64,000 nucleotides of DNA. Source: an uncultured virus (IMG/VR IMGVR_UViG_3300021389_002231). Its lineage: Duplodnaviria > Heunggongvirae > Uroviricota > Caudoviricetes. The stretch is from the IMG/VR virus record IMGVR_UViG_3300021389_002231; one strand, given 5' to 3'. Of the stretch, positions 8,821-46,689 are shown piece after piece; the first letter of the stretch is position 1; the number at the start of each line of letters is the position of its first letter. Below the pieces are notes generated by a model, which ran no database searches, was not told the origin of the DNA, and saw nothing but the letters and a program-made list of their open reading frames with translations. Made by a program: the position numbers and the translations under genes.

Positions 8821-8826
8821 TACTAC

Positions 8827-12928: not shown

Positions 12929-12968
12929 AGACGGTCTAGAAGATCGTATAAGAAAAGCAGGATACTAA
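12510..12968 (+). CDS. Candidate overprinted (+1 frame) membrane protein inside queE
   Basis: GGGAG SD 9 nt before in-frame ATG; 152 open codons; queE avoids NTA codons here; ends 6 nt before metK. Confidence 0.45.
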   Translation: MLQLKQTLRNTYTTICSTISTTMTELQSRGLVRQSSPLVENLGTMLLSLLWLGSIVLLMVAISILNLLLLTGLILMRLARLLMNIVKQGWIVLCTLCRWAVGQKSIISMFKKLRTSVWKRVGDSPQDSTSAYSETHGEPKDGLEDRIRKAGY

Positions 12969-30129: not shown

Positions 30130-31554
30130 ATGTCAGATAATAAATTACCAAGCGATACTTTTTGTATACTTCCGTGGATACATTTAAGCACAAGACCAGA
30201 TGGAAGTATGCGAGTATGTTGTACTGCTAACGCATCAAGTGTAGGAGCAACAAATGATAAAGCACACGGTGGACGAGTAGGTATTGTTAAAACAGAAGAT
30301 GGTAAGCCTGCTAACCTAAACAACAGTGATCTTAATAGCAGTTGGAATAACAGCTATATGAGAAGCGTTAGACAAATGATGCTTAGAGGTGATAAGCCAG
30401 CTAGTTGTTTAAAATGCTACAAAGAAGAAGATGCAGGACATAGATCAAAGCGTCAATGGGAAACAGACTATTGGATGCGTGATGGTATTGATGTTGACGA
30501 ACTAGTAGCACAAACATACGAAGATGGAAGTACAGATAGTAAACTACGTTATATTGATATTCGTATGGGAACTAAATGTCAGTTAGGTTGTGTTATGTGT
30601 AGCCCACATGATAGTTCAGGTTGGGTCAAAGACTGGAATGCATTATATCCAAATATTACAAATGAATCTCTAAAAGAAACTATGAATTGGGATTCTAAAG
30701 GTAAAACGTTTGGTGCTAGTTATAATTGGCACAAAGACAATCCTGTATTTTGGGAACAGTTTTATGCACAAATTCCATACATTAGACAATTATATTTTGC
30801 AGGCGGCGAAAGTACAGTTATTGAAGAACATTACAGTATTTTATCTAAAGTTATTGAAATGGGATATGCACATCAAATTGAAGTGCGTTACAATTCAAAT
30901 GGTGTTGAACTTCCAGATAGACTATTAGAACTATGGACACATTTCCAAAAAGTACGTTTCCATTATAGTATTGACAGTATTGGTGCAATGAATGATTATA
31001 TTCGTTACCCAAGTGAATGGGACCATCAACTTAAAATGTTTGAAAGACTAGATAAAGAAACATCTAACAATGTAGAAGTTACAATTGCATGTGCCGTTAA
31101 CGCTCTTAACATTCATTATATTCCAGACTTCCTTAAATGGAAACTTACAAGTGATTTAAAGAAAACAAATATGTGGCCATTTGGTGCAGGTGGTATTAAC
31201 TATCACTTTGTATACTGGCCAGGACATTTAAATGTTAAAGTATTACCAGATGAATTCCTAGACAAGACTGAAAAGAAATATGAAGAATTCATTAAGTGGT
31301 GGAAAGACAATTGGGAACTAGGTGTTCCTAGTTGGCACAAAGGAAAAGTAGATTACCAAACATGGGAAGATGCAAGTTACGGTATTAAACGTTTAAGAGG
31401 AATGATTAGTTTTGCTCGTAGTGAAGACTGGAGCAGACGCTTACCAGAATTTAGAGAATATATTAATAAACTAGATGAGTTACGTGGAACAGATTTCCGC
31501 AAAACATTTCCTGATATGGCATACTTACTAGATGAACCGGAGAATGATAAATGA
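30130..31554 (+). CDS. Radical SAM protein with N-terminal Twitch/SPASM
   Basis: FCILPW..RVCC..CLKC; CQLGCVMC; FAGGE; SIDS. Confidence 0.92.
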   Translation: MSDNKLPSDTFCILPWIHLSTRPDGSMRVCCTANASSVGATNDKAHGGRVGIVKTEDGKPANLNNSDLNSSWNNSYMRSVRQMMLRGDKPASCLKCYKEEDAGHRSKRQWETDYWMRDGIDVDELVAQTYEDGSTDSKLRYIDIRMGTKCQLGCVMCSPHDSSGWVKDWNALYPNITNESLKETMNWDSKGKTFGASYNWHKDNPVFWEQFYAQIPYIRQLYFAGGESTVIEEHYSILSKVIEMGYAHQIEVRYNSNGVELPDRLLELWTHFQKVRFHYSIDSIGAMNDYIRYPSEWDHQLKMFERLDKETSNNVEVTIACAVNALNIHYIPDFLKWKLTSDLKKTNMWPFGAGGINYHFVYWPGHLNVKVLPDEFLDKTEKKYEEFIKWWKDNWELGVPSWHKGKVDYQTWEDASYGIKRLRGMISFARSEDWSRRLPEFREYINKLDELRGTDFRKTFPDMAYLLDEPENDK

Positions 31555-32126
31555 AATATTTACTAGTTGCACTTGAAACAGAAGTGCCAGACATCGAATT
31601 ACCCGATGATTATACACTGATGATTACAGGTGTTGGTAAAATAAATGCTACTATGATGGCTACTATTGCCGCTAGACAGCCAGACTGCGAATGCATTATT
31701 AATTATGGAACTGCTGGAACTTTTAATCCTAAATTAATAGGTAAGCTACATAGAATTGGTATAGTTAAGCAACGAGATATGGATACCCGACCACAAGCAC
31801 CATTGGGAGTTACACCATATGAAGCTACACAATTTGGTGGCGACTTGCAAATTTACAAAGGAAGTAAATTCACATTAACTACAGGTGATAACTTTGTAAA
31901 AGGCAATCCCGAAATGCAAAGTGACTTTGTAGATATGGAAGGGTATGCTATTGCAAAAGTGTCAGGTATGTTTAACAAGCCTTGTATGATGTTAAAATAT
32001 GCAAGCGACTTAGCTAACGAATCCGCACCAGAAGAATGGGAAGCAAATCAAGCCAAAGGAAAAGATATGTTTCTAAAATGGCTAGACGATTTAGAAAAGA
32101 ATATTCAAGAACTAAAAGATGAGTAA
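31551..32126 (+). CDS. mtnN: MTA/SAH (5'-deoxyadenosine) nucleosidase
   Basis: TGVGKINA, NYGTAG, TGDNF, DMEGYA, SDLA. Confidence 0.8.
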   Translation: MKYLLVALETEVPDIELPDDYTLMITGVGKINATMMATIAARQPDCECIINYGTAGTFNPKLIGKLHRIGIVKQRDMDTRPQAPLGVTPYEATQFGGDLQIYKGSKFTLTTGDNFVKGNPEMQSDFVDMEGYAIAKVSGMFNKPCMMLKYASDLANESAPEEWEANQAKGKDMFLKWLDDLEKNIQELKDE

Positions 32127-33378
32127 TTCGGGCTTTTGTGCATTACCTTTTGTACAATACAGTACATACAATGGCGGCCGGTTTAGGTTATGTTGTATGG
32201 CCAAAGAACCCAAAGAACTTGTTAACCAAGAAAAACTAGGTATTGATGGTACATGGAACCACGATTATATTAAAGATGTAAGACAAAGAATGACTGCTGG
32301 TGAGAAACTACCAGAGTGTGTAGAATGTCATCACTTAGAACGCAACGGAATAATGAGCTCACGCCAATGGGAAAACAAGGTATGGGCAGATGTTATAGAT
32401 GATGTAGTAGCAAACGCATCAGCTAATGATTGGGAAATCGATCAACCCCTACAATTTGATTTTAGACTTGGTAACTTATGCAACTTGCAGTGTCAAATGT
32501 GCAACAAGGAAGCATCTCACTTAGTGAGTGTGGAACGGGCGACAATGGTACAAAGCGGACTCGGAGCGAACCATCCTGATTGGGACGGCAATATTGCAAA
32601 CAAAAAAGAAGCATTACTTCAACCTGGAATAGAGTGGGAGAGCTTTGAAAGAATGTTACCATATGCTCGCAAGATAAAACTAATAGGTGGCGAACCTACA
32701 GTTGCAACAGACATGTTTAAATTACTAGACATTGCAACCTCAAGTGGACATGCTGAACATATTGAATTAAGTTTTTACACAAACATAACTAACATGCAAG
32801 ACAAGTGGCTTGATCAGTTAGCTAAATTTGAAAAAGTAATTGTAAACTGCTCGCTAGAAGGCATGGGAGATATGAATGATTATCTCAGACCTCCAAGTAA
32901 GTGGGCAAGTGTATGGAAGAATTTTGACAAGTTAGTTAAGTTCTCAGACACAAAAGAAGGTAAGCGTATTAAGGTGCGTGTTACTACAGTAAACCAAATA
33001 ACCAATGCATTGCATACTGCTACATTTTGGAAGTTTATGCATGATTACCAGATGACTAGTAATAGAGGTATTGGTATGAGTACTAACCAATTAGTAGAGC
33101 CAGCATACTATAGTATGGCACATGCTCCTGAATGGTTGAAAGAAGAACAACGTGAACAGATTTTGGAATTTCTCAAAAGCATTGGCAACAGTCCACATTT
33201 TGAGCAATACGAAGAACCTCTTATGGAACTTGTTAATTTTAGTTTGGATCCTGAGCATAAGTATGATGCTAACATCATGCGCCAGTATGTTCAAATCACC
33301 GAAAACTACGACAGATTCAGACAACACGATATTACCAAAGTGTCGCCCGAATTTGGAAGAATTAAAAGAGACCTCTGA
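32119..33378 (+). CDS. Radical SAM protein with N-terminal Twitch/SPASM
   Basis: FCALPF..LCC..CVEC; CNLQCQMC; GGEP. Confidence 0.92.
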   Translation: MSNSGFCALPFVQYSTYNGGRFRLCCMAKEPKELVNQEKLGIDGTWNHDYIKDVRQRMTAGEKLPECVECHHLERNGIMSSRQWENKVWADVIDDVVANASANDWEIDQPLQFDFRLGNLCNLQCQMCNKEASHLVSVERATMVQSGLGANHPDWDGNIANKKEALLQPGIEWESFERMLPYARKIKLIGGEPTVATDMFKLLDIATSSGHAEHIELSFYTNITNMQDKWLDQLAKFEKVIVNCSLEGMGDMNDYLRPPSKWASVWKNFDKLVKFSDTKEGKRIKVRVTTVNQITNALHTATFWKFMHDYQMTSNRGIGMSTNQLVEPAYYSMAHAPEWLKEEQREQILEFLKSIGNSPHFEQYEEPLMELVNFSLDPEHKYDANIMRQYVQITENYDRFRQHDITKVSPEFGRIKRDL

Positions 33379-33436
33379 TATTACTGACGCAGAAACATAT
33401 CGTCGTTGGGATTGTAAATGGTCTATAGATTTTTAA
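33152..33436 (+). CDS. Candidate overprinted (+1 frame) lipoprotein
   Basis: K..LLILVWILSISMMLTSC lipobox; host-frame codon skew; extends 58 nt past the host stop. Confidence 0.5.
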   Translation: MNRFWNFSKALATVHILSNTKNLLWNLLILVWILSISMMLTSCASMFKSPKTTTDSDNTILPKCRPNLEELKETSDITDAETYRRWDCKWSIDF

Positions 33437-34253
33437 TGCGTTCTACCATACATAGCTCAGGCTTAATCAAACTTTCATTTAATATATCAGCTTCAAAGCA
33501 TTGTAACTTTGTACCAAACACAATTTGATGTGTTATCCACTGTGCATTAAAGAACCAAATATCACCAGGATTAAAAGTAATATAATGTAATGGGTGATGA
33601 AACTGATCCCATTGTTGTTCATTCCAAACGCATTTATTACGCATTTCAGTAATAAATGTGTGTATATTATTCTTATCTAACTCACCTAAATTAAACTCAT
33701 CTTTATAATCATAGTACATTTTTTCTAAGTCAGGTCCAAATGATAAAACTCTAGGACGTTTCTTATCTAGTTGTACAAACATACGTATCTGTTGTTCATT
33801 ACCGGTATGTTGTTCATCTAGTTCATCCAAGTGTAGTTTATTTTCTACTAGTGTATTGTATCTGTGACTAAGCATACGCTCAGTTGTTTTGTAATGTGGG
33901 AATAGCATATCAAATATTTCGTTCCAACCTTCTTGTGATTGTTTATGCTTCTTATGAAATAAGTCTATTTGTTCCTCAGACCAATTACGTTCATCTCTTA
34001 ATCTATCACGTTTTTTAATATGGCTGTTATACCATGGCATAATCCATTTGTTATCAGGAATAGTCCAATCTGGCAAGTCATCATAGTATTCGTAATCTAA
34101 CTTTGGTATGGTTAAATTTTTAATAACTACAGGCCAGCCACTTTCAAATGCTTCGTATAGTTTAAAATTGTCTTCTAGGTCTTGTATTTTAGCGTCGAAA
34201 ACATTGACAATGAAGTCGTTTCCTGCTATAATATCTTTAGCGATACGGGTCAT
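33423..34253 (-). CDS. Kdo hydroxylase (KdoO)-like Fe oxygenase
   Basis: KLHLD, RMFVQLD..RPRV, FNPGDIWF..Q.ITHQIVFG; alternative TTG start 34271. Confidence 0.6.
   Translation of the reverse strand: MTRIAKDIIAGNDFIVNVFDAKIQDLEDNFKLYEAFESGWPVVIKNLTIPKLDYEYYDDLPDWTIPDNKWIMPWYNSHIKKRDRLRDERNWSEEQIDLFHKKHKQSQEGWNEIFDMLFPHYKTTERMLSHRYNTLVENKLHLDELDEQHTGNEQQIRMFVQLDKKRPRVLSFGPDLEKMYYDYKDEFNLGELDKNNIHTFITEMRNKCVWNEQQWDQFHHPLHYITFNPGDIWFFNAQWITHQIVFGTKLQCFEADILNESLIKPELCMVERIKNL
34204..34232 (+). promoter_or_regulatory. Consensus sigma70 promoter with extended -10, antisense to the KdoO-like gene
   Basis: TTGACA-17 nt-TATAAT with TG at the extended -10 position. Confidence 0.8.
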
Positions 34254-34283
34254 GTTTGTATAAAACTCCAATCATGTATATAG

Positions 34284-34309
34284 ATAAATACATATATAAC
34301 AGTATTTAT
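34284..34309. promoter_or_regulatory. Face-to-face late-promoter-like motifs
   Basis: ATAAATAC-N10-GTATTTAT inverted repeat between divergent genes. Confidence 0.55.
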
Positions 34310-34367
34310 GCAAACTAAATCTACGTCCAAATAACATTATGGACAAATATCATATGAGAATAAAAAA

Positions 34368-35453
34368 ATGACAAAATCAATTAATGTATGGAGCGAATTT
34401 CAGCCCCTTAAAAAAGTAGTGCTAGGAGCACCATTTCCACTTGAGACCTTTGATTGGCATGAGGACGAAGAAACACGCAATGTAATGCGTCAAATATTTA
34501 AAGAAACAGCCGAGGACATAAAAGTGCTGGAGGGAATATTAAAGGACAGAGGTATCGAAGTGGTACGTCCTAAAAATATATTTACAATCACAGGTGAAGA
34601 ACAAATTAAATTACCATGGATGCATTGTGGGTTTCCTAACCACCCACTAATGCCACGAGATACACTTATGCCGTATGGTAAGAGTATGTTTGAAGTATTT
34701 ACAGGTAGCGATAATCGTTACTTTGAGAATCTTGCATATTACGATCATTGTTCGCAATGGTTTCGTGAAGGTGCAGATTGGGTTAGTATGCCAGGAGTAT
34801 TAGTAGAGAGTGGTAAAAAATACGACCACTTTGTAGAGAACGATCGACTGCTTTATCATGCGGCTAACATGATAAAGTGTGGACGCCACGTTTTGTTTAG
34901 CCAACCCTATGAGGGAGACAATAAACGAGGCAGAGGCACGGCACTGGGCCGCGAATGGATTCAACGTGAAATAAAGTTGCGATATCCAGACACCCAATTT
35001 TTGGACATTCCAGTAGGAGGACATATCGATGGTAAAATAGCTCTACTAAAGCCTGGTGTACTGATGACCTGGAATAAAAACTGGGTACCAGATGAAATGA
35101 AAGGTTGGCATATTATAGAAGTAGCAGATGACTTTGATATGCCTGAAGACTTTCAACAAACTCGTAAGCGTAGATTTCACAAAGAATATGTAAGCAAGTG
35201 GTTAGAGCATTGGGTAGGTTGTCCAGACGAAAGTGTGTTCGATGTTAATGTATTATCATTAGATGAAAGCACAGTTATTTGTACAGGTAAAAACGAAGCC
35301 GCATTTGCTGAAATGGAAGCACATGGTATTGAGCCAATATATTGGAACTTTAGACATCAGTATTTTTGGGATGGTGGTATTCATTGTTTAACAAGTGATA
35401 TTGTTAGAGAAGGTGATTGCCACGATTATATAACTAACAAGAGGTACTATTAA
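34368..35453 (+). CDS. Amidinotransferase (glycine/inosamine-phosphate family)
   Basis: WSEFQPLKKVVLG, MPRD, HIDG, FDVNVLS, GGIHC. Confidence 0.88.
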   Translation: MTKSINVWSEFQPLKKVVLGAPFPLETFDWHEDEETRNVMRQIFKETAEDIKVLEGILKDRGIEVVRPKNIFTITGEEQIKLPWMHCGFPNHPLMPRDTLMPYGKSMFEVFTGSDNRYFENLAYYDHCSQWFREGADWVSMPGVLVESGKKYDHFVENDRLLYHAANMIKCGRHVLFSQPYEGDNKRGRGTALGREWIQREIKLRYPDTQFLDIPVGGHIDGKIALLKPGVLMTWNKNWVPDEMKGWHIIEVADDFDMPEDFQQTRKRRFHKEYVSKWLEHWVGCPDESVFDVNVLSLDESTVICTGKNEAAFAEMEAHGIEPIYWNFRHQYFWDGGIHCLTSDIVREGDCHDYITNKRYY

Positions 35454-36553
35454 TGAACTGGTATAGACAAATACATAAATTACAAGTAGACATAACAAGT
35501 CATTGTAACGCAAGATGTGGTGCTTGTATTAGAAATGTAGACGGCGGAGAAACTAGACCAGGGTTACCACTTACTCACTTTGATGTAGATGTTTGGAAGC
35601 GTATGGCAACTGTGGATACTAAAGGCTGGTGGGTTAGACAACTAACACTAAATGGAAATTGGGGCGATCCAATGATGCACCCTCATTTAGTAGAAATGTT
35701 AGAAGTATGGATAGATGCACATCCAGAAAGTATGATATCAATTGCAACAAATGGAAGTATGCGTAGTACTAAGTTTTGGTCAGATCTTGCTACAGTATTA
35801 CGTACAAGCTCTCACCACAAAGTTGATTTTGCAGTTGACGGAATGGAAGATACGCATCACATATACAGAAGAAGAACTGTGTTTTCTAAACTAAAAGAAA
35901 ACATAAAAGCATTTACTCAAGCAAAAGGAAATGCAATTGCAGTAATGACCATGTTTGAACATAACCATCATCAAATTGATGAAGTAAAAGAATTATCAAG
36001 AGAACTAGGGTGCAGACAATTTAATGCAAGAAGAAGTCACAGTGATCATATGTTAATTAAAGACGGCAAGGAACAATATGAAATAAAAGGTTGGTATCCA
36101 ACTGGTAATGGCGAACATATAATTGATAACGATGAAGCAGAAATAAAGGTCAGATTTGAAGAAAATGACTGGCCGTTAAGTTCTAATAGAGATAGAATAT
36201 GGTTAGAAGCTAATGAGCGTTTTGAAGAATTAAATGACAACTATATTAAAAGTAAATGTCCATGGAAAGACGATGGTGAAGTACAAATAGACCCGTGGGG
36301 TATAGTATGGCCTTGTTGTCATATAAGTTTATATGGTGGACTAGGAGATTCTAGTCATATGTCAATAAGATTAAACTTTAACCAAGAAGCAGAAGACACA
36401 AAGTTAATAGAGGAAGCTCAACGGTCAAATGATTTACATACTAGATCTTTGAAAGATATATTAAATAATGATTGGTATAATACTACATTAAATAACGCGA
36501 TAGATGATGCAGAATATTATGTATGTAGAAATAGTTGTGGAGTATGTAAGTAA
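35453..36553 (+). CDS. Radical SAM protein with fused C-terminal SPASM
   Basis: CNARCGAC, GNWGDP; KCPW..GIVWPCCH..CRNSC. Confidence 0.92.
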   Translation: MNWYRQIHKLQVDITSHCNARCGACIRNVDGGETRPGLPLTHFDVDVWKRMATVDTKGWWVRQLTLNGNWGDPMMHPHLVEMLEVWIDAHPESMISIATNGSMRSTKFWSDLATVLRTSSHHKVDFAVDGMEDTHHIYRRRTVFSKLKENIKAFTQAKGNAIAVMTMFEHNHHQIDEVKELSRELGCRQFNARRSHSDHMLIKDGKEQYEIKGWYPTGNGEHIIDNDEAEIKVRFEENDWPLSSNRDRIWLEANERFEELNDNYIKSKCPWKDDGEVQIDPWGIVWPCCHISLYGGLGDSSHMSIRLNFNQEAEDTKLIEEAQRSNDLHTRSLKDILNNDWYNTTLNNAIDDAEYYVCRNSCGVCK

Positions 36554-37803
36554 TGTACGTTAATCCAATGTTAAATGATACACGTTATCCAACGTGTCTT
36601 GCACCTTGGAATGCACTTACTATTAAATGGGGTGGAGCAGTATTACCCGATATTATATACAATGGCAAGTTTGGAAACATTACAAGACAAACATTACCAG
36701 AGATATTAAACAGTGAAGAAGCAGTAGCATTAAGAAAATCACATGCAAGCAGAATAGTACCAGAAGCTTGTTTGGCTTGTACTAAAAAAGAAAAAAGTGG
36801 CAAAAGCCGTAGAATGTATTTTTGGGATAAGTTAGACGAAGATGTAAAGCGTGGTAGTATTAAAAACAGTGTAGATAGTAAACCCGATATACGCTACTTA
36901 GACTTTACAATCAGTAATAAATGTAACCTAGCGTGTATACATTGTAATCCTTTTGTAAGTACAGGTTGGACTAAAGATGGAAAGAAATTAAACAAAGAAA
37001 ATCCAGACTATTGGGAAAAAGCACAGATAGGATATCATGGAGTTGAAGACATGTCATTCCTTGATAACTTGTTTGCTGATCCAGAATACTTTCGTAATCT
37101 ACAGTGGGTCGCGTTAAGAGGCGGTGAGCCGTTGTATGATGAAAGTTGTAAAGCAATATTACAATGGTTTATTGATCAAGGATTAGCATCAAACATTATG
37201 CTAGATATTAGTACAAATGCTACAGTGTTTGATGATGACTTTCAAGAGATATTTAAACACTTTAAGCATATTGAATTGCTTATTAGTATCGAAGCAGTAG
37301 ATGAATTATATAGTGTAGTACGAGGCGGTTCGTATACATTTAAAGAACTAGAAGAAAACATAGAAAAGTTTTACACATATCCTAACATTGAGGTTGTGTT
37401 TGCAGTAACAGTTATGCTAACAAACATATTTGGGTTAGACAAAGTATGGAATTGGTTTAAAGAAAAACATATGCACCGAGCAAGTATAAGCATGAGCAAC
37501 GTAGTAGTAAATCCTACATACCTCAATATTGCATACATGCCGGAGGTGTTAAAGTACATTATGTATGATAAATTGCTACAGATACCAGATCAAAGCATTT
37601 GGCCAAAGGGAAGCTATCATGCAGATGAGATACATTATCAAACAGGTATCCACGCTATTAGAGATGGATTGCAAGTTGAAGTAGACGAAGCAGAACAAGA
37701 AAAGCAATGGAAGTGGTTTGTCAAGTATACAGAAGACTTAGACAGATTGCGTGGTACAGATACCTTTGCACTAATAAAGGAGTTGAAATTATACAATGAG
37801 TAA
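36553..37803 (+). CDS. Radical SAM protein with N-terminal Twitch/SPASM
   Basis: CLAPW..CLAC; CNLACIHC; GGEP; the usual CC is replaced (LPDI). Confidence 0.9.
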   Translation: MYVNPMLNDTRYPTCLAPWNALTIKWGGAVLPDIIYNGKFGNITRQTLPEILNSEEAVALRKSHASRIVPEACLACTKKEKSGKSRRMYFWDKLDEDVKRGSIKNSVDSKPDIRYLDFTISNKCNLACIHCNPFVSTGWTKDGKKLNKENPDYWEKAQIGYHGVEDMSFLDNLFADPEYFRNLQWVALRGGEPLYDESCKAILQWFIDQGLASNIMLDISTNATVFDDDFQEIFKHFKHIELLISIEAVDELYSVVRGGSYTFKELEENIEKFYTYPNIEVVFAVTVMLTNIFGLDKVWNWFKEKHMHRASISMSNVVVNPTYLNIAYMPEVLKYIMYDKLLQIPDQSIWPKGSYHADEIHYQTGIHAIRDGLQVEVDEAEQEKQWKWFVKYTEDLDRLRGTDTFALIKELKLYNE

Positions 37804-38701
37804 CCCAGATTTTGGAAAGACAGGAAACAGTGTATGGAACCAACCATACATGGATCACCTTAATGAAACATTCTTTCCTAACATAGATATATCAACACTA
37901 GCAGACGAATCTAACATTATGTTAGACAGATATCAAGGCTGGATTGAAAGTAGTAAACTAAACAATTTTACTGGGCTAGATGCATTTCCTTATAGGTTTG
38001 CAAGTGTAGGTACTACACAAACACTAGACTGGTGGCACTACTACTGTTCAGTAAATAACCTTAACCTCAAAACATTCAGAGGCGAGTATCCGTATAACAG
38101 AGATGCATTGTTGCACACAAAATTAGAATGGAGTGACAGTATTGATGACAAAGGTCTAACACAAGGCGATGCAGTATTAGTAAGTGTACCATTTAGTGGC
38201 ACTGGTAGAGTTCCTGAGCGTTTTGACGATATGATTAAAATATGCAATCAATTAAAGATTCCAGTGTTAGTTGATTGTGCATGGTTTGGTACTTGCTTTG
38301 ACATAGATATAAACTTAGACGAGCCTTGTATTAAGATGGTAGCATTTAGTACTACCAAAGGACTAAGTTGTGGTAACTGGCGTGCAGGTATTACATTCTC
38401 ACGCATCAACGAAGGTAGTTTAGAAGTACAAACAGATTGGAATCATGGAAACCATCTCAACACTGCAATTGCTAATAGGCTTATGGAAAAGTTTGGACCA
38501 GATACTATTCCTAAAAAGTATATGGACTCGCACGTAGCAGTATGTGATCATTATGGATTTGAAATGACAAACACCATACATATTGCACTAGCACCTAAAC
38601 ATACAGAATATGATGAGTTTCATCGAGACGGAATATACAACAGAATTAATATTGCGAAAGCATTAAAGCGTTACAAGACCAAAGGTAACTTTTATGAATG
38701 A
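37796..38701 (+). CDS. PLP-dependent (fold type I) enzyme-like protein
   Basis: LVDCAW, FSTTKGL (Schiff-base Lys), WRAG. Confidence 0.7.
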   Translation: MSNPDFGKTGNSVWNQPYMDHLNETFFPNIDISTLADESNIMLDRYQGWIESSKLNNFTGLDAFPYRFASVGTTQTLDWWHYYCSVNNLNLKTFRGEYPYNRDALLHTKLEWSDSIDDKGLTQGDAVLVSVPFSGTGRVPERFDDMIKICNQLKIPVLVDCAWFGTCFDIDINLDEPCIKMVAFSTTKGLSCGNWRAGITFSRINEGSLEVQTDWNHGNHLNTAIANRLMEKFGPDTIPKKYMDSHVAVCDHYGFEMTNTIHIALAPKHTEYDEFHRDGIYNRINIAKALKRYKTKGNFYE

Positions 38702-39137
38702 CAACCCTATAGAAATTACTAGTCGCAAATATCCTATTATAGCAAACATGATATTTGATGGAATTGGACAAGAAAATTGTGAAGATATTATTTGGCAAAA
38801 TGTAATTGATACAGTAAGTGAAATTGAACAAAATGAAATAGGAGTAAGTGTAACTCAGAGTTACCAATACACAAAACTAAATGACGAACCAACTATTATA
38901 ACTAGATGGCAAGGTATTAAAACTACTAATGGTAGTGAATTTAGAATTGGATTGGGTACAGGTAAATCAGCAGATAAAAATACTCCACCTATAATGTCTG
39001 GAAACTTTAAAACTGGTGTGCAGGTCAATAGTACATTATCTATAGAATCAATTAAATTAGGTTGCATAGATGGAAAACTTGCAGTTGAAAAAGATGGCAG
39101 ATGGTATGCTATACAAATAGGAGAACGTATTGAGTAA
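38694..39137 (+). CDS. Hypothetical protein
   Basis: Coupled ORF. Confidence 0.65.
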   Translation: MNDNPIEITSRKYPIIANMIFDGIGQENCEDIIWQNVIDTVSEIEQNEIGVSVTQSYQYTKLNDEPTIITRWQGIKTTNGSEFRIGLGTGKSADKNTPPIMSGNFKTGVQVNSTLSIESIKLGCIDGKLAVEKDGRWYAIQIGERIE

Positions 39138-40272
39138 CCTTCCTAGTAATGCATGTGCATATCCATTTAAAGCAGAAATGCTTATGCATGGACAACCGTC
39201 AACACCGTGTTGTAGATTCCATACAAGATTTTTGCCAGAAGATAAAAGTTTTAATGAGATACGAGAAACTATGATGCGTAACGAATGGCATCCAGGTTGC
39301 TATAAATGTAAGTCAGATGAAGCAATGAAAGGCAGTAGTATGCGAACTGATGCTGATGAATTTTTTGATGACTTTACAGATACAGTAAGATTAGAGTATT
39401 TGGAAATAACTGTAGGTAGACTTTGCAACTTAGCATGTTTGAGTTGTGGAGCAGAGTTTAGTCATACATGGGATAAAGATGAACTTGCATTGGGCATAAG
39501 TGATGAGGCTAAGATTGAAAAGTTAAAAGAAGTACAAGAATATGATTTAGATAATTTAGATTTAGACAAATTAAAAGATGTTAAGTTTATAAAAGTAACT
39601 GGTGGTGAACCATTCTTACATAGACAGTTTTTAAACCTAGTCGTTAGATTAGCGGACAGTGGAATAGCAGGACAGATCGACTTAGAGATATTTACAAACT
39701 GTACATGGTTTCCAAAGAAATTAGAACTTGATGCATTATTAAAGTTTAAGCGTATACAACTAAGTCCTAGTATTGATGGTGTAGGTAGTACAAACGACCT
39801 ACTACGTTACCCTAGTAAATGGGAAACAATAGAAGCTACACTTGACAAGTGGATAGAAGTAAAAGACGCTACAGGACGCTTAAAAATAGCTACAGCCACC
39901 ACTGTAAGCGTTATTAATGCTCCACAGCTACATGAGTTTATACATTGGGCAAGAGTGCATAAAGGCATAGGAGTAATGCTACAAACAGTATATGAACCTC
40001 ATTATTTAAGTGTAGAACATTGGGGTAATGCATATAGAAAGTTATTAAAACTAACAGTGGATCAACAATACATGGGTTTTAATAAGAATGAAAGTAAATT
40101 TAGTGCTAGTTATAAACTGTTAGATAATTTATGCTCTGTAGTAACTAATGCACAACAAGATAAAACACAAGACTATATTATAGAATTAAAAAGAATATTA
40201 GCACACAGAGGACAAGACATAAGTATGGCTCCTAAGTTTGCAAATATATTAAGGCACATGAATTATGATTGA
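39130..40272 (+). CDS. Radical SAM protein with N-terminal Twitch/SPASM
   Basis: CAYPF..PCC..CYKC; CNLACLSC; TGGEPF; TTG start with GGAG. Confidence 0.9.
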   Translation: MSNLPSNACAYPFKAEMLMHGQPSTPCCRFHTRFLPEDKSFNEIRETMMRNEWHPGCYKCKSDEAMKGSSMRTDADEFFDDFTDTVRLEYLEITVGRLCNLACLSCGAEFSHTWDKDELALGISDEAKIEKLKEVQEYDLDNLDLDKLKDVKFIKVTGGEPFLHRQFLNLVVRLADSGIAGQIDLEIFTNCTWFPKKLELDALLKFKRIQLSPSIDGVGSTNDLLRYPSKWETIEATLDKWIEVKDATGRLKIATATTVSVINAPQLHEFIHWARVHKGIGVMLQTVYEPHYLSVEHWGNAYRKLLKLTVDQQYMGFNKNESKFSASYKLLDNLCSVVTNAQQDKTQDYIIELKRILAHRGQDISMAPKFANILRHMNYD

Positions 40273-41503
40273 TAAAGAAAAATTAAAACAAAGTAGCACA
40301 TTTTGTATGTTACCGTTTATGCATATTTACGGAACAGCAGGAGGCGATATAGTGCCGTGCTGTGAAGCACAAGAAGTACCATTGAATAATCCAGGTGAGA
40401 CTGCTCTTGAAAGCTGGAACAATGAAAACTACAAAGAGCTAAGACGAGCTTTGGCCAAGGATGAAAGACCAGAACGCTGTGCAGTGTGCTGGCATAACGA
40501 GGACAGTGGGATCGTAAGCAATCGTCAACAATGGGAACAAGACAACTGGAACGAGTTCGCTGACATCATTGAAGTAAATGATGATTACAGTGTAAACAAT
40601 CCACCTATATGGATTGAACTTAAAGTAAGTAATTTTTGTAACTTAAAATGTATAATGTGTAGCACACATAGTTCTTATAAACGTGTAAAGGACTTAGACA
40701 TTATAACAAAGTATCAAGACAGTGGACACGAAACAAGATTACTTAGACCAACTACTTTGTTTGATAGCTTAAATGAGTGGCCGGAATTATGGGAACATGT
40801 ACACACCTTACAGTTTACAGGTGGTGAGCCTATTATTAATCAAGAACACTATGATTTGTTAGAGTCAATTCCACAACATTTAAAGCATAAAATAAAATTA
40901 CGCTATGCTAGTAATTTAAGTCATGTAAAATTTAAAAAGTATGATTTAGTTAAAATTTGGAATGAATTTAAAACTGTTAACATCAAAATAAGTATGGACG
41001 GTGTAGGAGATGTGTATAACTTTATCCGCCAAGATGGTGATTGGGATAATGTGTATGCTAATATGATGGTACTTGATAGTGAACCAACTATAGACGTGGC
41101 TGCTGGTATTACAATACAAGCACATAATATATACCATATGCCAGAGTTTTATGCTTTTTGGAAACACAGTGATATTAAACTTAGGTTCATTACTGCTAAT
41201 ATTTTACAAACACCAAGATACTTAGCACCAAGTGTATGGCCAGGAGAATACAGAGAAGCTATTATTAATAAACTAAAGGGTGCCCTAGATGAACATCCTG
41301 AAATGCAAAAGTTCATTACGTATATGGAAAATAATCAACCTAATATACGTGACTATGCAAAAATGAGAAAGTATAACAGAGATATAGAAGCACGATATCC
41401 AAAAGAAGTAACACTAGCATCAATGCTTAAAGAACACTTAGACATGCAACCAGAGAATATGGAAGCAGTACATAATAGATTATTGAAAGAAGAAAATAAA
41501 TGA
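40265..41503 (+). CDS. Radical SAM protein with N-terminal Twitch/SPASM
   Basis: FCMLPF..PCC..CAVC; CNLKCIMC; TGGEP. Confidence 0.92.
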   Translation: MIDKEKLKQSSTFCMLPFMHIYGTAGGDIVPCCEAQEVPLNNPGETALESWNNENYKELRRALAKDERPERCAVCWHNEDSGIVSNRQQWEQDNWNEFADIIEVNDDYSVNNPPIWIELKVSNFCNLKCIMCSTHSSYKRVKDLDIITKYQDSGHETRLLRPTTLFDSLNEWPELWEHVHTLQFTGGEPIINQEHYDLLESIPQHLKHKIKLRYASNLSHVKFKKYDLVKIWNEFKTVNIKISMDGVGDVYNFIRQDGDWDNVYANMMVLDSEPTIDVAAGITIQAHNIYHMPEFYAFWKHSDIKLRFITANILQTPRYLAPSVWPGEYREAIINKLKGALDEHPEMQKFITYMENNQPNIRDYAKMRKYNRDIEARYPKEVTLASMLKEHLDMQPENMEAVHNRLLKEENK

Positions 41504-41679
41504 ATCGTAAGTTAAGAATTAGTGGCGCAGAAGTGCCTGCATTTGATATACCAATTAAATTAAAAATAGTAACTAAATGTCCTAACAAATGGAAACTAGT
41601 AGATATGGAAACAGGAGAAGAATATATTGGACAAGTACCTACAGAAGAAGATACACACCATTGGAAGAAAATTAAATGA
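41500..41679 (+). CDS. 59 aa hypothetical protein (not in ORF track)
   Basis: MNRKLRISG...TKCPNKWKLVDMETGEEYIG; ATGA coupling at both ends. Confidence 0.7.
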   Translation: MNRKLRISGAEVPAFDIPIKLKIVTKCPNKWKLVDMETGEEYIGQVPTEEDTHHWKKIK

Positions 41680-41954
41680 TTAAAGTATTTTTTATTGCTA
41701 AAATGAAATCACCTATGCCAAGTGAGTATTTACAGATGAGTAAAAAGATGCGTGAACTAGCAGAAGCTCATCCTGGCTTTATAGATATTACAAGTGAAGA
41801 ACATGGCGACATTGAAATTACTATTAGTAGTTGGCGTAGTAAAGAAGATGTAATGGATTGGGCAAACAATCCAGAGCATATGGAAGCAAAACAAAGATCA
41901 GGTGAATGGTACGAATGGGTACGAGGAATACACGTAGAGGCAGTAGATGATTAA
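41676..41954 (+). CDS. Antibiotic biosynthesis monooxygenase (ABM) family
   Basis: HPGF, ITISSW, W...PEH..A, WY. Confidence 0.75.
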   Translation: MIKVFFIAKMKSPMPSEYLQMSKKMRELAEAHPGFIDITSEEHGDIEITISSWRSKEDVMDWANNPEHMEAKQRSGEWYEWVRGIHVEAVDD

Positions 41955-42228
41955 AGTAGTTATTATAGGAAAACTTAAAAATGCTAATAGCGAATATTTT
42001 GATTATTGCAAACGCATAGAAGAAAAAAGAATTGCTAACAGTCCAATTGGCCTAATTGATTACTCGACTGAAATAAAAGATGATGTTGAAATAACAATTA
42101 GCTCATGGAAAACCTGGGATAACATGTTAGATTGGGCACATGATCCATTACAAAAAGAAGCCAAAGAAAAAGAAGATGAATGGTATTATTGGGTTAAAGG
42201 AATTCACATAAAGGCAGAAGATGATTAA
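41947..42228 (+). CDS. ABM family protein, tandem paralog
   Basis: Collinear with the previous gene (EITISSW, DWA, WY.WV.GIH). Confidence 0.7.
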   Translation: MIKVVIIGKLKNANSEYFDYCKRIEEKRIANSPIGLIDYSTEIKDDVEITISSWKTWDNMLDWAHDPLQKEAKEKEDEWYYWVKGIHIKAEDD

Positions 42229-43507
42229 AGGGCAAAAAGATTGGGATTATCAGTTTGTAAGTGACTGTGAAATAGTAAATGTGTTTATACCAAAAAACAC
42301 ACATTTAGCAGAATATCAGACACTTAAACAAAAGCTATTGTTATTGCAACAAGTAGAATGTGATAATCACTTGACATCAAGTATAGTTAACCTGTATAAT
42401 ACTAGTAGCATTGAATGGATTGAACATGTTAGAAAGATGGGACACAAGTATGTTGCATTTTGGTTTGATGGCTGCTGGCCTAAAACAGATGGAATTGAAA
42501 AGAAGATATTAACTTATATAAATCGCTTAGAAAAAAAGGATTGGATTACAGCAGTACATCCAAAATATGTAGATAGTTTAATGTTACTGAACATAGACGA
42601 ATTTATAGCCTGGCCTGCCAAAGCACCAAACTTTGGAAAGTATGACTTTTGGGCCGAAAATTGGCTAGGAGATTCAACCGTTGAATTAAGTAAAACTATA
42701 GAAAGAAACATTGTAGTGGGTGCTCCTAAGACAGATCCAGTTAACTTTTTAAATGGATTAATGGGTAAAAAGTACACAGATCATACGATAGCAAGAGGTG
42801 CCAGAGTTATTATTAAACGTAAAAATATACCCAGTAGTCCTATATATTTTGTTAATACAGAGCCTAGTAGTCCTACAGTAGCAGACCCTATTAAAAACAC
42901 TATATTCAAGCAATATGTGGGTGCTACAGCCGGGTTTAAACTGCTATATTACGCTTATACGTACGGTTTAGATATAGACAGTACAAAGTTCGTATGGTAC
43001 GATTTCGACGCTTACAGCGTTAAATTTAAGCGTCTAATGGTGGAAAAATGGGACGGTTTTGACTATCCAGCGTTTGTTAAGCAGTTTTGTGAAGATAATC
43101 CAGATGCAAATGCATTATTGCTAAAACAGGTAGACAAACAATGGTTAAATATAGTAGAACAGTTCGGTGGAATGGATAATTGGTTAGATTTTTGGATGCA
43201 AGTAAAGTTATGTAAACACGAGTTCTTAGAAGTAGATCTTGTAAACAATCATAAAGCAATTACAGATAAACTAGACAACGATTCAAGTACATTCTTTTGG
43301 GCAAGCAACATATACAGTTATGTGCTACTAAAAGTAATAGTTGAGCCATTTACACTAGAACGAAGTTTTGCCAATTTAATGGTAAGACTACAACAAATAG
43401 ACAAGTGCTGGTTTAGTGGCACAGATCCAAACGATAACGATTTAACATGCGATGTTAAATGGGTGCTTGGGTACAGTACCAACGATAGTATAGGAATGGG
43501 AATATAA
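42221..43507 (+). CDS. Hypothetical enzyme-like protein (paralog of next gene)
   Basis: Shares GxWP, NTE, WxD, WxG.D, SNI blocks with 43507-44910. Confidence 0.75.
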   Translation: MIKGQKDWDYQFVSDCEIVNVFIPKNTHLAEYQTLKQKLLLLQQVECDNHLTSSIVNLYNTSSIEWIEHVRKMGHKYVAFWFDGCWPKTDGIEKKILTYINRLEKKDWITAVHPKYVDSLMLLNIDEFIAWPAKAPNFGKYDFWAENWLGDSTVELSKTIERNIVVGAPKTDPVNFLNGLMGKKYTDHTIARGARVIIKRKNIPSSPIYFVNTEPSSPTVADPIKNTIFKQYVGATAGFKLLYYAYTYGLDIDSTKFVWYDFDAYSVKFKRLMVEKWDGFDYPAFVKQFCEDNPDANALLLKQVDKQWLNIVEQFGGMDNWLDFWMQVKLCKHEFLEVDLVNNHKAITDKLDNDSSTFFWASNIYSYVLLKVIVEPFTLERSFANLMVRLQQIDKCWFSGTDPNDNDLTCDVKWVLGYSTNDSIGMGI

Positions 43508-44910
43508 TGGGATCAGAAACAAAACTAACAATAAGAGAAAAAGAGATATGCCACGTAACATTAGAAGGTGTTATGTGCAAAGAACTAGAAGAAAAAGCAT
43601 CTGATGATTATATATCTATTTTAAAAATGGCTACAGATTGGAATGTGAATCTTGCTACAAACGGATCTTTTATACATGGAGTTATGATAGAACAACTAGA
43701 CTCAGTACTATCAGATTTAAAACAACTTGGATTTAAAGTAGCTGTACTTTGGGCAGAAGGCAGTTGGCCAGAAGATAGTGATATTGACAAAGAAATATTA
43801 AAGTCTGTTGAAGAATGGGATAAAGAAGAATGGGGATGTGCTGGTCATATATTAGACAGGCCAGGAAGACGTAGACCTATATTTCATCATCAGTGTGTTA
43901 TTGTTAATTTACGAAAACTTACACAAAGTATACAATGTAGAATTCGTGATTACGAAGCAAGCACAGAACACTTTCACGATGATTATACACCTAAGTGGAT
44001 TAAGCCGGTATCGGAAAAATATGTACCAGATAGTCATTGGAAAAGTTATGAAGAAGCAAAAACACCATATAACTTGTTTAACTGTTTATTACGAACATCA
44101 CTAGAACATGGACTAAAAGTATTTAACTTAGATTATAATATACGAAGCCTTAAAGTATGTTCATATCCAGAAGATGATATTGAATGGACTGAGAACGAAT
44201 TATTTAAAACATACGAACATGCAGATCGCATATGGGATATAAAAGAAACATACGAAGATAAGATTCCACTACTTGAGTTTAAAATACAAGATTCAAGTGT
44301 TGTATATATTCTTAACACGGAGTCAGTGCCACATGTAATTGTAAATGATATACAAGTAATGGTGTGTCCATGCAGTGGATTGCATCAATTTAAATATATG
44401 GAAAAAAGTTTAGATGTAATGGAAATGATTATATGGTCAGACTACAGCCCTTACTCAGTTGCATGGATGGAGATACTTATACACGAATGGAATGGAAAAG
44501 ACTTTCATGGATTCTTTGAAGCAAACAAACACAGATTAAATTTTGATGGAACATTTGAACTTGGGTTCGGAACATGGGAAAAGTTTATGGACAGTTTTGA
44601 TAGTGAAGAACAATGGCTAGAAGTATGGAATAAAATACAAAACTTAGAGCATCAATTTGAAGTAGTCAATATAGTTAATGACCATGATGCAATTGTAAAT
44701 TTAATACCACCTAATAAAAATGTACTATTACAATGTAGCAATATATTTTTATATGAATCAAATTACTTTAACAAAGGATTAGACACTACATTTAACGCTA
44801 TTTCATATATAAGAAAAGTACAAGGTATTTCTAATAAAGTTTATTTTAATGGCGACATTAATGGAAACTATTATAATATGAGAAATATAAACAGGATGAA
44901 ATGGATATGA
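43507..44910 (+). CDS. Hypothetical enzyme-like protein (paralog of previous gene)
   Basis: 467 aa; shares the same motif blocks. Confidence 0.75.
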   Translation: MGSETKLTIREKEICHVTLEGVMCKELEEKASDDYISILKMATDWNVNLATNGSFIHGVMIEQLDSVLSDLKQLGFKVAVLWAEGSWPEDSDIDKEILKSVEEWDKEEWGCAGHILDRPGRRRPIFHHQCVIVNLRKLTQSIQCRIRDYEASTEHFHDDYTPKWIKPVSEKYVPDSHWKSYEEAKTPYNLFNCLLRTSLEHGLKVFNLDYNIRSLKVCSYPEDDIEWTENELFKTYEHADRIWDIKETYEDKIPLLEFKIQDSSVVYILNTESVPHVIVNDIQVMVCPCSGLHQFKYMEKSLDVMEMIIWSDYSPYSVAWMEILIHEWNGKDFHGFFEANKHRLNFDGTFELGFGTWEKFMDSFDSEEQWLEVWNKIQNLEHQFEVVNIVNDHDAIVNLIPPNKNVLLQCSNIFLYESNYFNKGLDTTFNAISYIRKVQGISNKVYFNGDINGNYYNMRNINRMKWI

Positions 44911-45656
44911 TACACTACAATAATTTATCATGGTGGGAACCCCCAAATGATGAAACAATGGAATACTTTGAAACATGGGAAAATTTTAAAACAAATCCTG
45001 CACTAGCTGATAACAAACAATTAGATGCAACAGATCTAAATAACATAATGGACAACACTAATGTCCCATGGGTCACTATGCCAGATATACCAGTACCATG
45101 GAAAGACATACATGCCGAAGCAATGGCATTATTAGAAACTGAATGTTTCTCGTTACATAGAGCAGTAGGTAGTGGTGGTTGGTTAAGTTTATGTGTACAT
45201 GGAATGAGTAGTGTTCATACAAATGTTCCAGAAGATTATAACTTGCCAGATGAAGCTGAATACGAATTAAGTGATTGGACAGATATTAGTAAATTTACAC
45301 CACGTACTAAAGAATGGATGCAAGACGAAATGTTGTATGAAAGATTTAGTCGTGTAAGATTTATGGCAGTATTGCCAGGTGGTTGGATTAGTCCACATCG
45401 AGATACAGATAAATTAGCAGGTTTAGGTGCAACCAATGTTGCTATTAATAACCCAAAAGGTTGCAATTTAGTAATGGAAGAATATGGTATATTGCCATAC
45501 ACAGACGGTCTTGTAGTAAAGATTAATACAGGACACAATCACGCGGTATGGAATCGCAGTGACGAGCCTCGAATACATATGATATTTGATGGCGATACAA
45601 GTACAGAATTTAAAACAAAAGTGAATGAGAATTATGCCAAAATGTTTGATGTTTAA
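44901..45656 (+). CDS. Aspartyl/asparaginyl beta-hydroxylase family oxygenase
   Basis: RVRFM..LPGGWISPHRD..HAVWN...RIHMI. Confidence 0.8.
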   Translation: MDMIHYNNLSWWEPPNDETMEYFETWENFKTNPALADNKQLDATDLNNIMDNTNVPWVTMPDIPVPWKDIHAEAMALLETECFSLHRAVGSGGWLSLCVHGMSSVHTNVPEDYNLPDEAEYELSDWTDISKFTPRTKEWMQDEMLYERFSRVRFMAVLPGGWISPHRDTDKLAGLGATNVAINNPKGCNLVMEEYGILPYTDGLVVKINTGHNHAVWNRSDEPRIHMIFDGDTSTEFKTKVNENYAKMFDV

Positions 45657-46689
45657 AAACGGTGTTACTATAGGTCCTGGCGGACAAGTCAGGCCTTGTT
45701 GTATGTATATGAATACTGATATCGAACAACGATACAATGAGCCAGGTTGGCGTGAAAAGTTTGATGAACTGTATGAAGAAAGTTTAACTAAATGGTTACC
45801 TAATTGTTATGAATGCAAAGCAGAAGAAGATAGAGGTAGAAGAAGTTTAAGACAAGACTCATTAGAATGGTTTAATGAAGCACAAGGAATACAGTATTGG
45901 GATTTAAAATTACATAATACTTGCAACTTAACTTGTGTAATGTGTAATCCGTTAAGTAGCAGTAAATGGCATACAATGGTAAATGCAAATCCAGATGAGG
46001 ACTGGCATAGACTAGTTAAAGTAGAATCAAAAATGAAAACAGGGTGGCACAAAGATATACTGCCGGAAATATTATCATCATTATATGATACAAAGTATTT
46101 AAAATTTACAGGTGGTGAGCCATTAATGATTCCACACGTAAGAAAAATTATTACGCAGTTATATGAAGATGAAGTTTCACCTTCTGTTAGACTAAGCATT
46201 ATTACAAACGGTACTATACCACTTGATGCTGAATTATTAAAAATGCTACTAACATTTAAACAGGTAATATTTTTAGTAAGCATAGACGGAATAGAGGATA
46301 AGTTTGAATATATTAGAGCTGGTGCTAATTGGAAAGAAGTAGAGGCTAATTTAATAAAGTTTAAACAGATTGAAATTAATTACCCAGATAAGTTTCATTT
46401 AAATATAAATTATTTGCCTATGTCAGTTAATGCATCACAAAATGAAGAGGCGGAACAATGGGCAAAAGATTTAAAGATTAGATTTAGTAAAAGTGTAGAA
46501 ATATATAGACCACATTATTTAACATATGCTGGGCTAAACAATAAATTAAGAGAAAGATATAATATAAAAACTCATCACGAATATGATGAGAATGTGTTTA
46601 AGGAATTACTAAAACATATGGATATGAAAGATAGATTACAAGGCACTGATTTTAGAAGTGTATTTCCGGAGTTTTTTGAAGATGAGTAA
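45634..46689 (+). CDS. Radical SAM protein with N-terminal Twitch/SPASM
   Basis: C..RPCC..CYEC; CNLTCVMC; TGGEP. Confidence 0.9.
   Translation: MPKCLMFKNGVTIGPGGQVRPCCMYMNTDIEQRYNEPGWREKFDELYEESLTKWLPNCYECKAEEDRGRRSLRQDSLEWFNEAQGIQYWDLKLHNTCNLTCVMCNPLSSSKWHTMVNANPDEDWHRLVKVESKMKTGWHKDILPEILSSLYDTKYLKFTGGEPLMIPHVRKIITQLYEDEVSPSVRLSIITNGTIPLDAELLKMLLTFKQVIFLVSIDGIEDKFEYIRAGANWKEVEANLIKFKQIEINYPDKFHLNINYLPMSVNASQNEEAEQWAKDLKIRFSKSVEIYRPHYLTYAGLNNKLRERYNIKTHHEYDENVFKELLKHMDMKDRLQGTDFRSVFPEFFEDE

Follow-up and report, generated by a model that had tools for sequence, protein, structure and literature searches.

Introduction

Phage proteins encoded in a second reading frame of an unrelated gene are known from tiny genomes which are under strong size pressure: protein E of phiX174, encoded inside gene D, and protein L of MS2 are overprinted membrane lysis proteins. 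The T5 lipoprotein Llp is encoded by a free-standing gene beside the gene of the receptor-binding protein. Overprinting in viruses has been reviewed (PMC8227390). In an excerpt of PMC6139136 the embedded o-spanins, among them lambda Rz1, are small phage lipoproteins with a lipobox and periplasmic cysteines, which are encoded in the +1 frame over another gene and are missed by gene callers; the u-spanins of the T1 gp11 type are described there as combining a lipoprotein signal with a C-terminal transmembrane segment and no periplasmic cysteine. Llp is, in an excerpt of PMC9586334, a small lipoprotein at the periplasmic side of the outer membrane in which a disulfide between Cys11 and Cys58 ties the ends of a domain of about 60 residues, and with Llp, made by a lytic phage, we group the Cor lipoproteins (10.64898/2026.03.26.714494). 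Here we analyze an open reading frame (ORF) at positions 33152..33436 of a 64,000-nt stretch of the viral record IMGVR_UViG_3300021389_002231. We call this stretch the window; it is one strand and all coordinates refer to it. The ORF lies in the +1 frame over the 3′ end of a gene for a radical SAM enzyme, and its product is predicted to be a lipoprotein.

The locus, as predicted from its sequence, shares with the embedded o-spanins all the traits just listed. It differs from the Rz1 type in that the overlapped gene codes for a radical SAM enzyme, that no i-spanin partner or lysis cassette is nearby, that there is no sequence similarity, that the overlap is partial with a private tail of 58 nt, and that the gene is dispensable in most related phages. 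A preliminary description of the locus had already drawn the contrast with Rz1, and it holds, the host gene not being an i-spanin gene; the neighbours of this radical SAM gene are enzymes or unknown proteins. Unlike in u-spanins, the C-terminus W-x-C-K-W-S-I-D-F has no hydrophobic segment and two periplasmic cysteines are invariant. With Llp and Cor the predicted product has in common its size, its predicted location and a putative internal disulfide (Cys22 and Cys46 of the mature protein), although there is no significant similarity in PHROG, Pfam or PDB-sequence searches. As in phiX174 E and MS2 L, a small hydrophobic, membrane-targeted protein is read in the +1 frame of an unrelated gene and a T-rich host wobble supplies the hydrophobic residues; here, however, the genome is large (about 350 kb, extrapolated) and the product carries a lipobox. 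Our search of open-access full text brought up no earlier description of a lipoprotein gene overprinted on a phage gene other than a spanin gene. Judged from its sequence, the ORF is an embedded phage lipoprotein gene on an enzyme gene, unrelated to any known family. We give a probability of roughly 0.7 to the overall explanation, an overprinted lipoprotein gene with, as a guess, an Llp/Cor-type accessory role in the envelope.

The reading frame and its host gene

The features of the locus are as follows.

32119..33378 (+), host gene, a radical SAM enzyme of 419 amino acids (Pfam PF04055 Radical_SAM, E = 2.5e-8); its last 75 codons are overprinted, stop at 33376-33378
33137..33139 (+), +1-frame stop bounding the ORF upstream, TGA or TAA here in 7 of 7 distinct ORF-bearing sequences
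33152..33436 (+), overprinted ORF from GTG, 94 amino acids, stop codon (33434-33436) included; proposed lipoprotein gene
33200..33211 (+), alternative start region from the variant alignment, with TTG 33200 (78 amino acids) and ACG 33209 (ATG in some relatives)
33212..33268 (+), predicted signal peptide, charged residue and hydrophobic core K-N-L-L-W-N-L-L-I-L-V-W-I-L-S-I-S-M-M, from the peptide and the alignment
33269..33280 (+), lipobox L-T-S-C, L-[TA]-S-C in 21 of 21 variants; the Cys at 33278-33280 (Cys43) is the proposed lipidated residue
33278..33433 (+), mature domain of 52 amino acids, with K-T-T-T, [PF]-K-C-R-P, E-L and W-x-C-x-x-x-x-x-F conserved in the alignment
33379..33436 (+), tail of 58 nt past the host stop, coding in the +1 frame only, from pN/pS, indels and comparison with orthologues lacking the ORF

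From stop to stop the +1 frame is open over 33140..33436, that is, for 98 codons. The encoded peptide consists of a charged residue, a hydrophobic run of 18 residues, L-T-S-C and then 51 mostly polar residues. Cysteine codons are found at 33278, 33341 and 33413, the latter two being positions 64 and 88. The preliminary description had listed a basic residue, a hydrophobic stretch, a lipobox and two further cysteines, and translation of 33152..33436 gives exactly these; the frame also runs, as had been stated, 58 nt beyond the host stop up to the convergent gene, which it overlaps by 14 nt. A third claim was that the overlapped host codons avoid NTA and use rare codons. This is borne out as well: of the Leu/Ile/Val codons, 0 of 15 in host codons 345-419 are NTA, compared to 37 of 63 in the part of this gene before them (Fisher p = 1.7e-5), and the rare codons CTC, CGC, TCG, CCC and ATC occur in the overlap.

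The frequency of +1 stops in the genes of the window is 0.079 per codon. Conditioned on the host amino-acid sequence and on the codon usage of the window, the probability of finding no +1 stop is about 0.04 for codons 345-363 (from the GTG to the ATG site discussed below) and at most 0.0006 for codons 364-419. The case from this single sequence is thus only partly made, and openness alone is weak evidence. As far as sequence comparison can decide, it is the orthologues which make the case for dual coding decisive.

Orthologues with and without the reading frame

We collected 29 viral loci by means of the host protein (71-96% amino-acid identity), a set which is unbiased as to the ORF. They fall into three classes.

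Bearing loci (L001-4, L007-9, L022 and L028; 9 of 29), +1 frame open for 92-105 codons with the hydrophobic stretch, the lipobox and both further cysteines
Decayed loci (L005, L006 and L013; 3 of 29), +1 frame open for 75 codons, lipobox Cys and tail missing
Lacking loci (the remaining 17 of 29), +1 stops present

Reduced to distinct sequences (n = 22), seven are bearing, two decayed and 13 lacking. In the codon alignment each of the 13 lacking sequences has several +1 stops, and the seven bearing sequences have none. The stops arise where Leu/Ile/Val codons precede A or G; over codons 345-419 we counted nine in L010, six in L029 and seven in L014. The many stops in these orthologues indicate that the ORF is a clade-specific gain and not a by-product of the host sequence. 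The C-terminus of the host protein is conserved in all 29 loci regardless of the ORF, also in the 17 where stops interrupt the +1 frame; of the two frames, that of the host is therefore the older.

Searching with the peptide motifs of the ORF itself yielded another 22 metagenome loci, all 22 intact, as expected from a set which is biased to intact copies. Altogether there are 21 distinct ORF variants, and these serve only to describe variation. One version of the tail, …N-P-N-S-Y-R-M-W-D-C-[KR]-W-S-I-D-F, occurs in L042, L043, L048 and L049 joined to differing backgrounds of signal peptide and mature domain, which suggests recombination within this small gene.

Selection on the second frame

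To compare the proportion of synonymous differences (pS) we contrasted the overlap, taken as host codons 362-419, with the upstream part of the gene in the seven bearing and the 15 other distinct sequences, the two decayed ones being counted with the latter. The mean pS of the overlap is 0.349 in bearing sequences and 0.702 in the others. Other windows of 58 codons in the bearing sequences have a pS of 0.42-0.65, so the overlap is the lowest of all. The median ratio of overlap to upstream pS is 0.61 for the 21 bearing pairs and 0.99 for the 104 other pairs, whereas the corresponding ratio for nonsynonymous differences (pN) in the host protein is nearly the same, 1.78 versus 1.76. It is thus only at synonymous sites that divergence decreases, and a recent exchange of the segment does not account for this. 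Between bearing lineages the upstream host pS reaches 0.54-0.72, which is near saturation, and yet not a single +1 stop is present.

Among 18 bearing sequences synonymous diversity drops from 0.319 upstream to 0.173 in codons 363-419; the minimum of any upstream 57-codon window is 0.253. The lowest value in the whole gene, 0.035, is at codons 377-388, where the end of the hydrophobic core and the lipobox are encoded. The dip is due to individual host codons which are fixed among the 21 variants and which specify +1 residues.

Codon 384, host xCT, fixed in 21 of 21; +1 residue Leu at −3
Codon 386, host Ile ATC (7% usage), fixed in 20 of 21; +1 residue Ser at −1
Codons 396-398, host AAC-TAC-GAC, fixed in 21, 20 and 21 of 21; +1 T-T-T of the K-T-T-T motif
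Codon 408, host Val GTG (10% usage), fixed in 21 of 21; +1 residue second Cys
Codon 409, host TCG, fixed in 20 of 21
Codon 410, host CCC, fixed in 21 of 21

Beneath the hydrophobic core the host wobble of the bearing sequences is 58% T and 5% A, compared to 35% T and 38% A elsewhere in the gene; the same core codons in lacking sequences have 39% T and 36% A. These patterns indicate that purifying selection is acting on the +1 frame. The preliminary description had proposed a real dual-coding region and had named, as the test, whether close orthologues have +1 stops or lose the lipobox Cys. One coherent group keeps the frame, the lipobox and both cysteines over near-saturated synonymous divergence, and host synonymous constraint is found only in this group and only in the overlap. 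The proposal is thus supported, and in our view 33152..33436 is very probably a real protein-coding gene.

The sequence past the host stop

The tail is free of host constraint, and its pooled pN/pS is 0.36. One serine position in it is variously encoded by TCT, TCA, TCG, AGT and AGC, and such switching between TCN and AGY codons requires selection at the protein level. Silent variation is also seen at Cys (TGT/TGC) and Phe (TTT/TTC) codons. The ORF is 92, 95, 98, 103 or 105 codons long, and nevertheless the C-terminal W-x-C-x-x-x-x-x-F is always in frame with the lipobox.

In many loci without the minus-strand gene the stop of the ORF overlaps the ATG of the downstream gene (the counterpart of 34368..35453). 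In the lacking loci L012 and L029 this downstream gene overlaps the host stop with offsets of −1 and −14, whereas in bearing phages it starts 39-80 nt later. The later start implies that the tail is added sequence.

Origin and history

In 5.8 billion clustered proteins and 1.84 billion representatives no relatives were found beyond fragments of the same ORF. The large protein sets returned one truncated call of the ORF (57 amino acids), two end-of-contig fragments and one repetitive match. The latter, P0002, was rejected as due to chance; it is a tandem-repeat protein of 904 amino acids with 14 matches to the same 16 profile positions. That a truncated call is the sole one in 5.8 billion proteins implies that gene callers miss the ORF. 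The lack of a homologue outside the clade agrees with a gene that arose de novo through overprinting.

When a tree is built from the non-overlapped part of the host protein, the bearing sequences do not form one clean group. With the approximately unbiased (AU) test a clade of the bearing sequences together with the L005 type was not rejected (p = 0.141), and the bearing sequences alone were rejected (p = 0.028). This points to the L005 group as a secondary loss. L005, L006 and L013 (about 4046..4273) have lost the tail by deletion as well as the lipobox Cys and have gained a +1 stop at codon 349, although an open stretch of 75 codons is left; owing to the deletion, their host gene ends at the place of the ORF stop in the others. 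The simplest history would be one gain followed by one loss. With an older host frame, what appears to be purifying selection on the new frame and no homologues elsewhere, the locus has what is expected of an overprinted gene.

The predicted product

Bacterial lipoproteins are recognized by a PROSITE-type rule which asks for a short N-terminal region with Lys or Arg and for a Cys within about 15-35 residues of the start. Read from TTG 33200 the Cys is at position 27 and a Lys at position 5, which agrees with the rule; so do the ATG starts found in 8 of 21 variants. From GTG 33152 the Cys is at position 43, outside the distance of the rule. Only six of the 1030 start-to-stop peptides of the window pass, and by inspection only the peptide from TTG 33200 among them has its Cys preceded by a long hydrophobic run without charges. 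A start near 33200-33209 yields a classical lipoprotein signal peptide of 24-27 amino acids. The lipobox consensus [LVI][ASTVI][GAS]C, as given in the excerpt of PMC6139136, is matched at the end of the hydrophobic segment, by L-T-S-C in the window; among the 21 variants the −2 residue is only T or A. In the alignment of the mature part C1, K9, T10, T12, L19, K21, C22, P24, L26, E28, L29, W44, C46 and F52 are invariant, and residue +2 is A, N, V or I but never D. By the enterobacterial rule lipoproteins without Asp at +2 go to the outer membrane, so this would be the destination. By sequence logic, then, the mature product is a lipoprotein of 52-58 residues and a predicted substrate of signal peptidase II, in which the invariant Cys22 and Cys46 probably form a disulfide. 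That the product is a lipoprotein we regard as probable, if somewhat less so than that the gene is real.

At strict thresholds nothing was found for the small protein in Pfam or PHROGs. With E up to 1, phrog_2425 was hit by 17 of 21 variants (best E = 0.0063) and SieB by one of 21; these matches are weak and driven by the hydrophobic segment. The best score in the ESM Atlas, 0.88, lies below the level of 0.9 for a lead, and one cluster there has LPAM_1 on 18% of its members. The only match in the PDB sequence search is the signal peptide of Psb27 (E = 0.6). Contigs from RNA libraries also contain the locus: those of X15 and X16 (one study) span it in nearly identical form, and those of X17 and X18 contain parts or relatives. 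From contigs, however, neither transcription and its strand and ends nor translation can be read, and DNA may have been carried over.

The start codon

GTG 33152 is the sole candidate start common to all 21 variants. The N-terminal residues M1, N2, W5 and N6 are likewise invariant in 21 of 21, and N2, W5 and N6 are held by the host codons CGT, GAA and TTG (10% usage). Synonymous diversity dips to 0.162 at codons 341-352, and between the GTG and the ATG site the frame is stop-free in every variant, an outcome with a probability of about 0.04 per sequence. The 33209 site has ATG in eight variants and ACG in the other 13 of the 21, and TTG is possible at the 33200 site in 14 of 21. GTG 33152 is thus slightly favoured as the start on these patterns, and the inner ATG may also be used in some variants. 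The preliminary description had called the start uncertain and without a strong Shine-Dalgarno sequence, and in agreement with this, pairing of the Shine-Dalgarno type does not distinguish the GTG from the ATG/TTG.

Weighing the lipoprotein reading

Several points weigh against the view that the ORF is a gene for a lipoprotein. A simple geometric estimate from the stop frequency of 0.079 predicts about two open +1 runs of 75 codons per window, and three other same-strand open stretches of at least 80 codons do exist inside genes of the window. As 14 of the 21 variants came from the search with the ORF motifs, their intactness is partly by construction, and the independent deep bearing lineages number only three or four. 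As to the start, a signal peptide of classical length requires the ATG or TTG near 33200-33209, and both are missing in 5 of 21 variants; the GTG places 42 residues before the Cys, beyond the range of 15-35; and from the GTG to the ATG site synonymous diversity is near background (0.261 for codons 345-362 and 0.379 for codons 353-364). No convincing Shine-Dalgarno sequence was found at the candidate starts (−2.2, −1.5 and −1.9 kcal/mol, compared to a background median of −2.2), a lack shared by about half of the genes of the window, the host gene included. AlphaFold models are poor, with predicted local distance difference test (pLDDT) scores of 59.5 and 51.1; both pair two short strands which carry the two cysteines, which we take as a hint only. 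No family match in PHROG, Pfam, ESM Atlas or PDB-sequence searches supports any function. Finally, in the library fragment P0004 (54 amino acids) the W-D-C-K runs without a stop into M-K-F-G-F-K-S-Y-N-S-W of the downstream gene. It thus has neither the normal C-terminus nor the stop, which fits a length difference of one base close to where the ORF ends. P0004 may reflect faulty assembly, or it may be a natural variant with a fusion or a frameshift.

Among other explanations, a lysis function of a real lipoprotein, as an o-spanin-like outer-membrane partner or another factor disrupting the outer membrane, has to be considered first. The traits shared with o-spanins (a small phage lipoprotein with periplasmic cysteines, in +1 overlap and missed by callers, following the excerpt of PMC6139136) speak for it, as do weak matches of three to four of the 21 variants to Rz-like spanin PHROGs (E = 0.005-0.05). 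These matches, however, are below significance and probably driven by the hydrophobic segment. The host is a cytoplasmic radical SAM enzyme without an N-terminal membrane segment, no i-spanin-like gene is adjacent, and the gene lies in an enzyme cluster and not in a lysis cassette. That the ORF is absent from 17 of 29 loci and was lost again in one lineage would be surprising if it served an essential step of lysis. The records of five relatives gave no match to PF03245, which is uninformative as these are fragments rated 28-52% complete. Measured against o-spanins, the product has the outer-membrane lipoprotein signal but neither the i-spanin context nor membership in a known spanin family. 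We consider a role in lysis unlikely.

Unlikely, too, is a real gene whose product is not lipid-modified but is a bitopic signal-anchor protein or a peptide secreted by signal peptidase I, the lipobox-like motif serving otherwise. From GTG 33152 the hydrophobic segment is 21 residues from the N-terminus, which is more signal-anchor-like, and AlphaFold draws, at low confidence, one long helix of residues 3-47. On the other hand, three lipobox positions and the Cys are kept in 21 of 21 variants by host wobble and a rare codon, right at the peak of synonymous constraint, and the −2 residue varies between T and A only, within the consensus of the PMC6139136 excerpt.

We also considered a stand-alone envelope weapon, either a one-component factor for outer-membrane lysis or receptor blocking or a lipid-anchored peptide which the about 20 radical SAM enzymes of the region would tailor before export; this appears improbable. 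Related to it is the idea that the small protein is a Cys/Trp peptide of the ribosomally synthesized and post-translationally modified (RiPP) type, which the neighbouring radical SAM enzymes would use as precursor or substrate and which would be exported once modified. The ORF does lie within their array, several members of which have SPASM-like Cys-rich parts, and its invariant residues include three Cys and two Trp. But host enzyme and array exist without the ORF in 17 of 29 loci, so the enzymes are independent of it; the N-terminus would be a strongly hydrophobic export signal rather than a typical leader; and PHROG and Pfam searches give no family support. This makes a RiPP-like peptide very improbable.

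Hardly more can be said for there being no second gene at all and the open frame reflecting chance, an RNA element or a local codon preference. The expected number of open runs and the existence of others, as mentioned above, would allow it. Against it stand the clade-specific synonymous constraint, the protein-like evolution of the tail, the in-frame indels and the joint improbability of stop-free frames across near-saturated lineages. On the plus strand the ORF region contains nothing resembling a promoter, the tail has no terminator, Rfam gives no match and the RNA fold is not unusual (z = −1.0). The idea that ribosomes shift into the +1 frame and so make a form of the radical SAM enzyme with another, membrane-anchored C-terminus, which could draw on the poor Shine-Dalgarno sequences, on the lack of a universally classical start and on the synonymous dip at codons 341-352 as a shift site, we regard as nearly dismissed, as by inspection no known +1 shift motif and no host-frame stop is seen in 33140-33210, a conserved +1 stop lies four codons before the GTG, and a lipobox is sensible only near an N-terminus.

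A proposed mechanism

The overprinted lipoprotein gene could have arisen and could work in the following steps. An ancestor of the clade would have opened the +1 frame over the last about 75 codons of the radical SAM gene and gained 37-76 nt of new sequence between the host gene and the next gene. The product would be translated from the mRNA of the host gene, with initiation most likely at GTG 33152 and, as an alternative in some variants, at the ATG or TTG near 33200-33209. It would then be exported by Sec, lipidated at Cys43 by Lgt and cleaved by signal peptidase II. Finally, the two invariant mature cysteines (22 and 46) would probably form a disulfide which closes a small hairpin. As for the function, an accessory factor like Llp and Cor, which masks a receptor or excludes superinfection, is a tentative suggestion by analogy. 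An accessory function in the envelope would rank above an essential lysis role because accessory enzymes surround the gene, most related phages do not have it and one lineage appears to have lost it.

Genomic neighbourhood

The window is AT-rich (GC about 35%) and its plus strand is densely coding. PHROG matches in the window include thymidylate synthase, clamp loader, head maturation protease and 7-deazaguanine genes. The closest named relatives of the clamp loader are the jumbo phages PA5oct, Atu_ph07 and RsoM2USA (51-40% identity). Against named phage records there is no DNA-level match, and the protein search gave distant radical SAM relatives only (19-28% identity). The window is part of a large phage, and the clade is one of uncultured marine jumbo phages. 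The completeness of related contigs (99-192 kb) is estimated at only 28-52%, and extrapolation from these estimates gives a genome size of roughly 350 kb.

By Pfam and PHROG searches the ORF sits within a run of about 20 radical SAM genes. These genes lie in a single orientation at 30130..56479, with another stretch at 7652..9459; small unknown ORFs are interspersed. Such a density of radical SAM genes is unusual for a phage, and in open-access full text we found no report of a radical SAM array in this phage group. A PNP_UDP_1 (nucleosidase-like) gene lies within the array at 31551..32126. Genes for a GTP cyclohydrolase and for QueD-like and QueE-like proteins (965..1663 and 11582..12928) point to a 7-deazaguanine modification of the phage DNA. 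Two genes follow the ORF.

33423..34271 (−), convergent gene for 282 amino acids of unknown family, from the ORF call; overlaps the last 14 nt of the ORF and is not part of the system
34368..35453 (+), conserved downstream gene for 361 amino acids, PHROG 25854; weak ADI-like C-terminus with E = 0.015, below the Pfam cut-off

The convergent gene has no Pfam or PHROG match. It is present in the window, L001, L028, L005 and L013 and absent from L022, L003, L007 and L008, where the next plus-strand gene directly follows; this distribution suggests that the gene was inserted.

Inside the QueE-like gene 12029..12928 there is a second alternative frame, at 12432..12968 (+), which is the longest +1 run without a stop in the window (178 codons from stop to stop, with a TTG at 12480); it has no Pfam match. 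An antisense frame at 33091..33432 (−) of 113 codons is open in the window but in only 8 of 21 variants and was therefore rejected as a gene; we regard it as a by-product of the NTA avoidance.

Biological meaning

The locus is a clean natural case of gene birth by overprinting in a large double-stranded DNA phage, for which related genomes show each stage: before the gene, with it and after it. It indicates that a complete export-and-lipidation signal can be built from the wobble positions of an unrelated enzyme gene and that embedded lipoprotein genes are not restricted to spanin cassettes. Standard gene calling missed the ORF in essentially every public record. Marine phage genomes may thus conceal more small proteins which act on the envelope, and this would have a bearing on host range, superinfection and lysis in the ocean.

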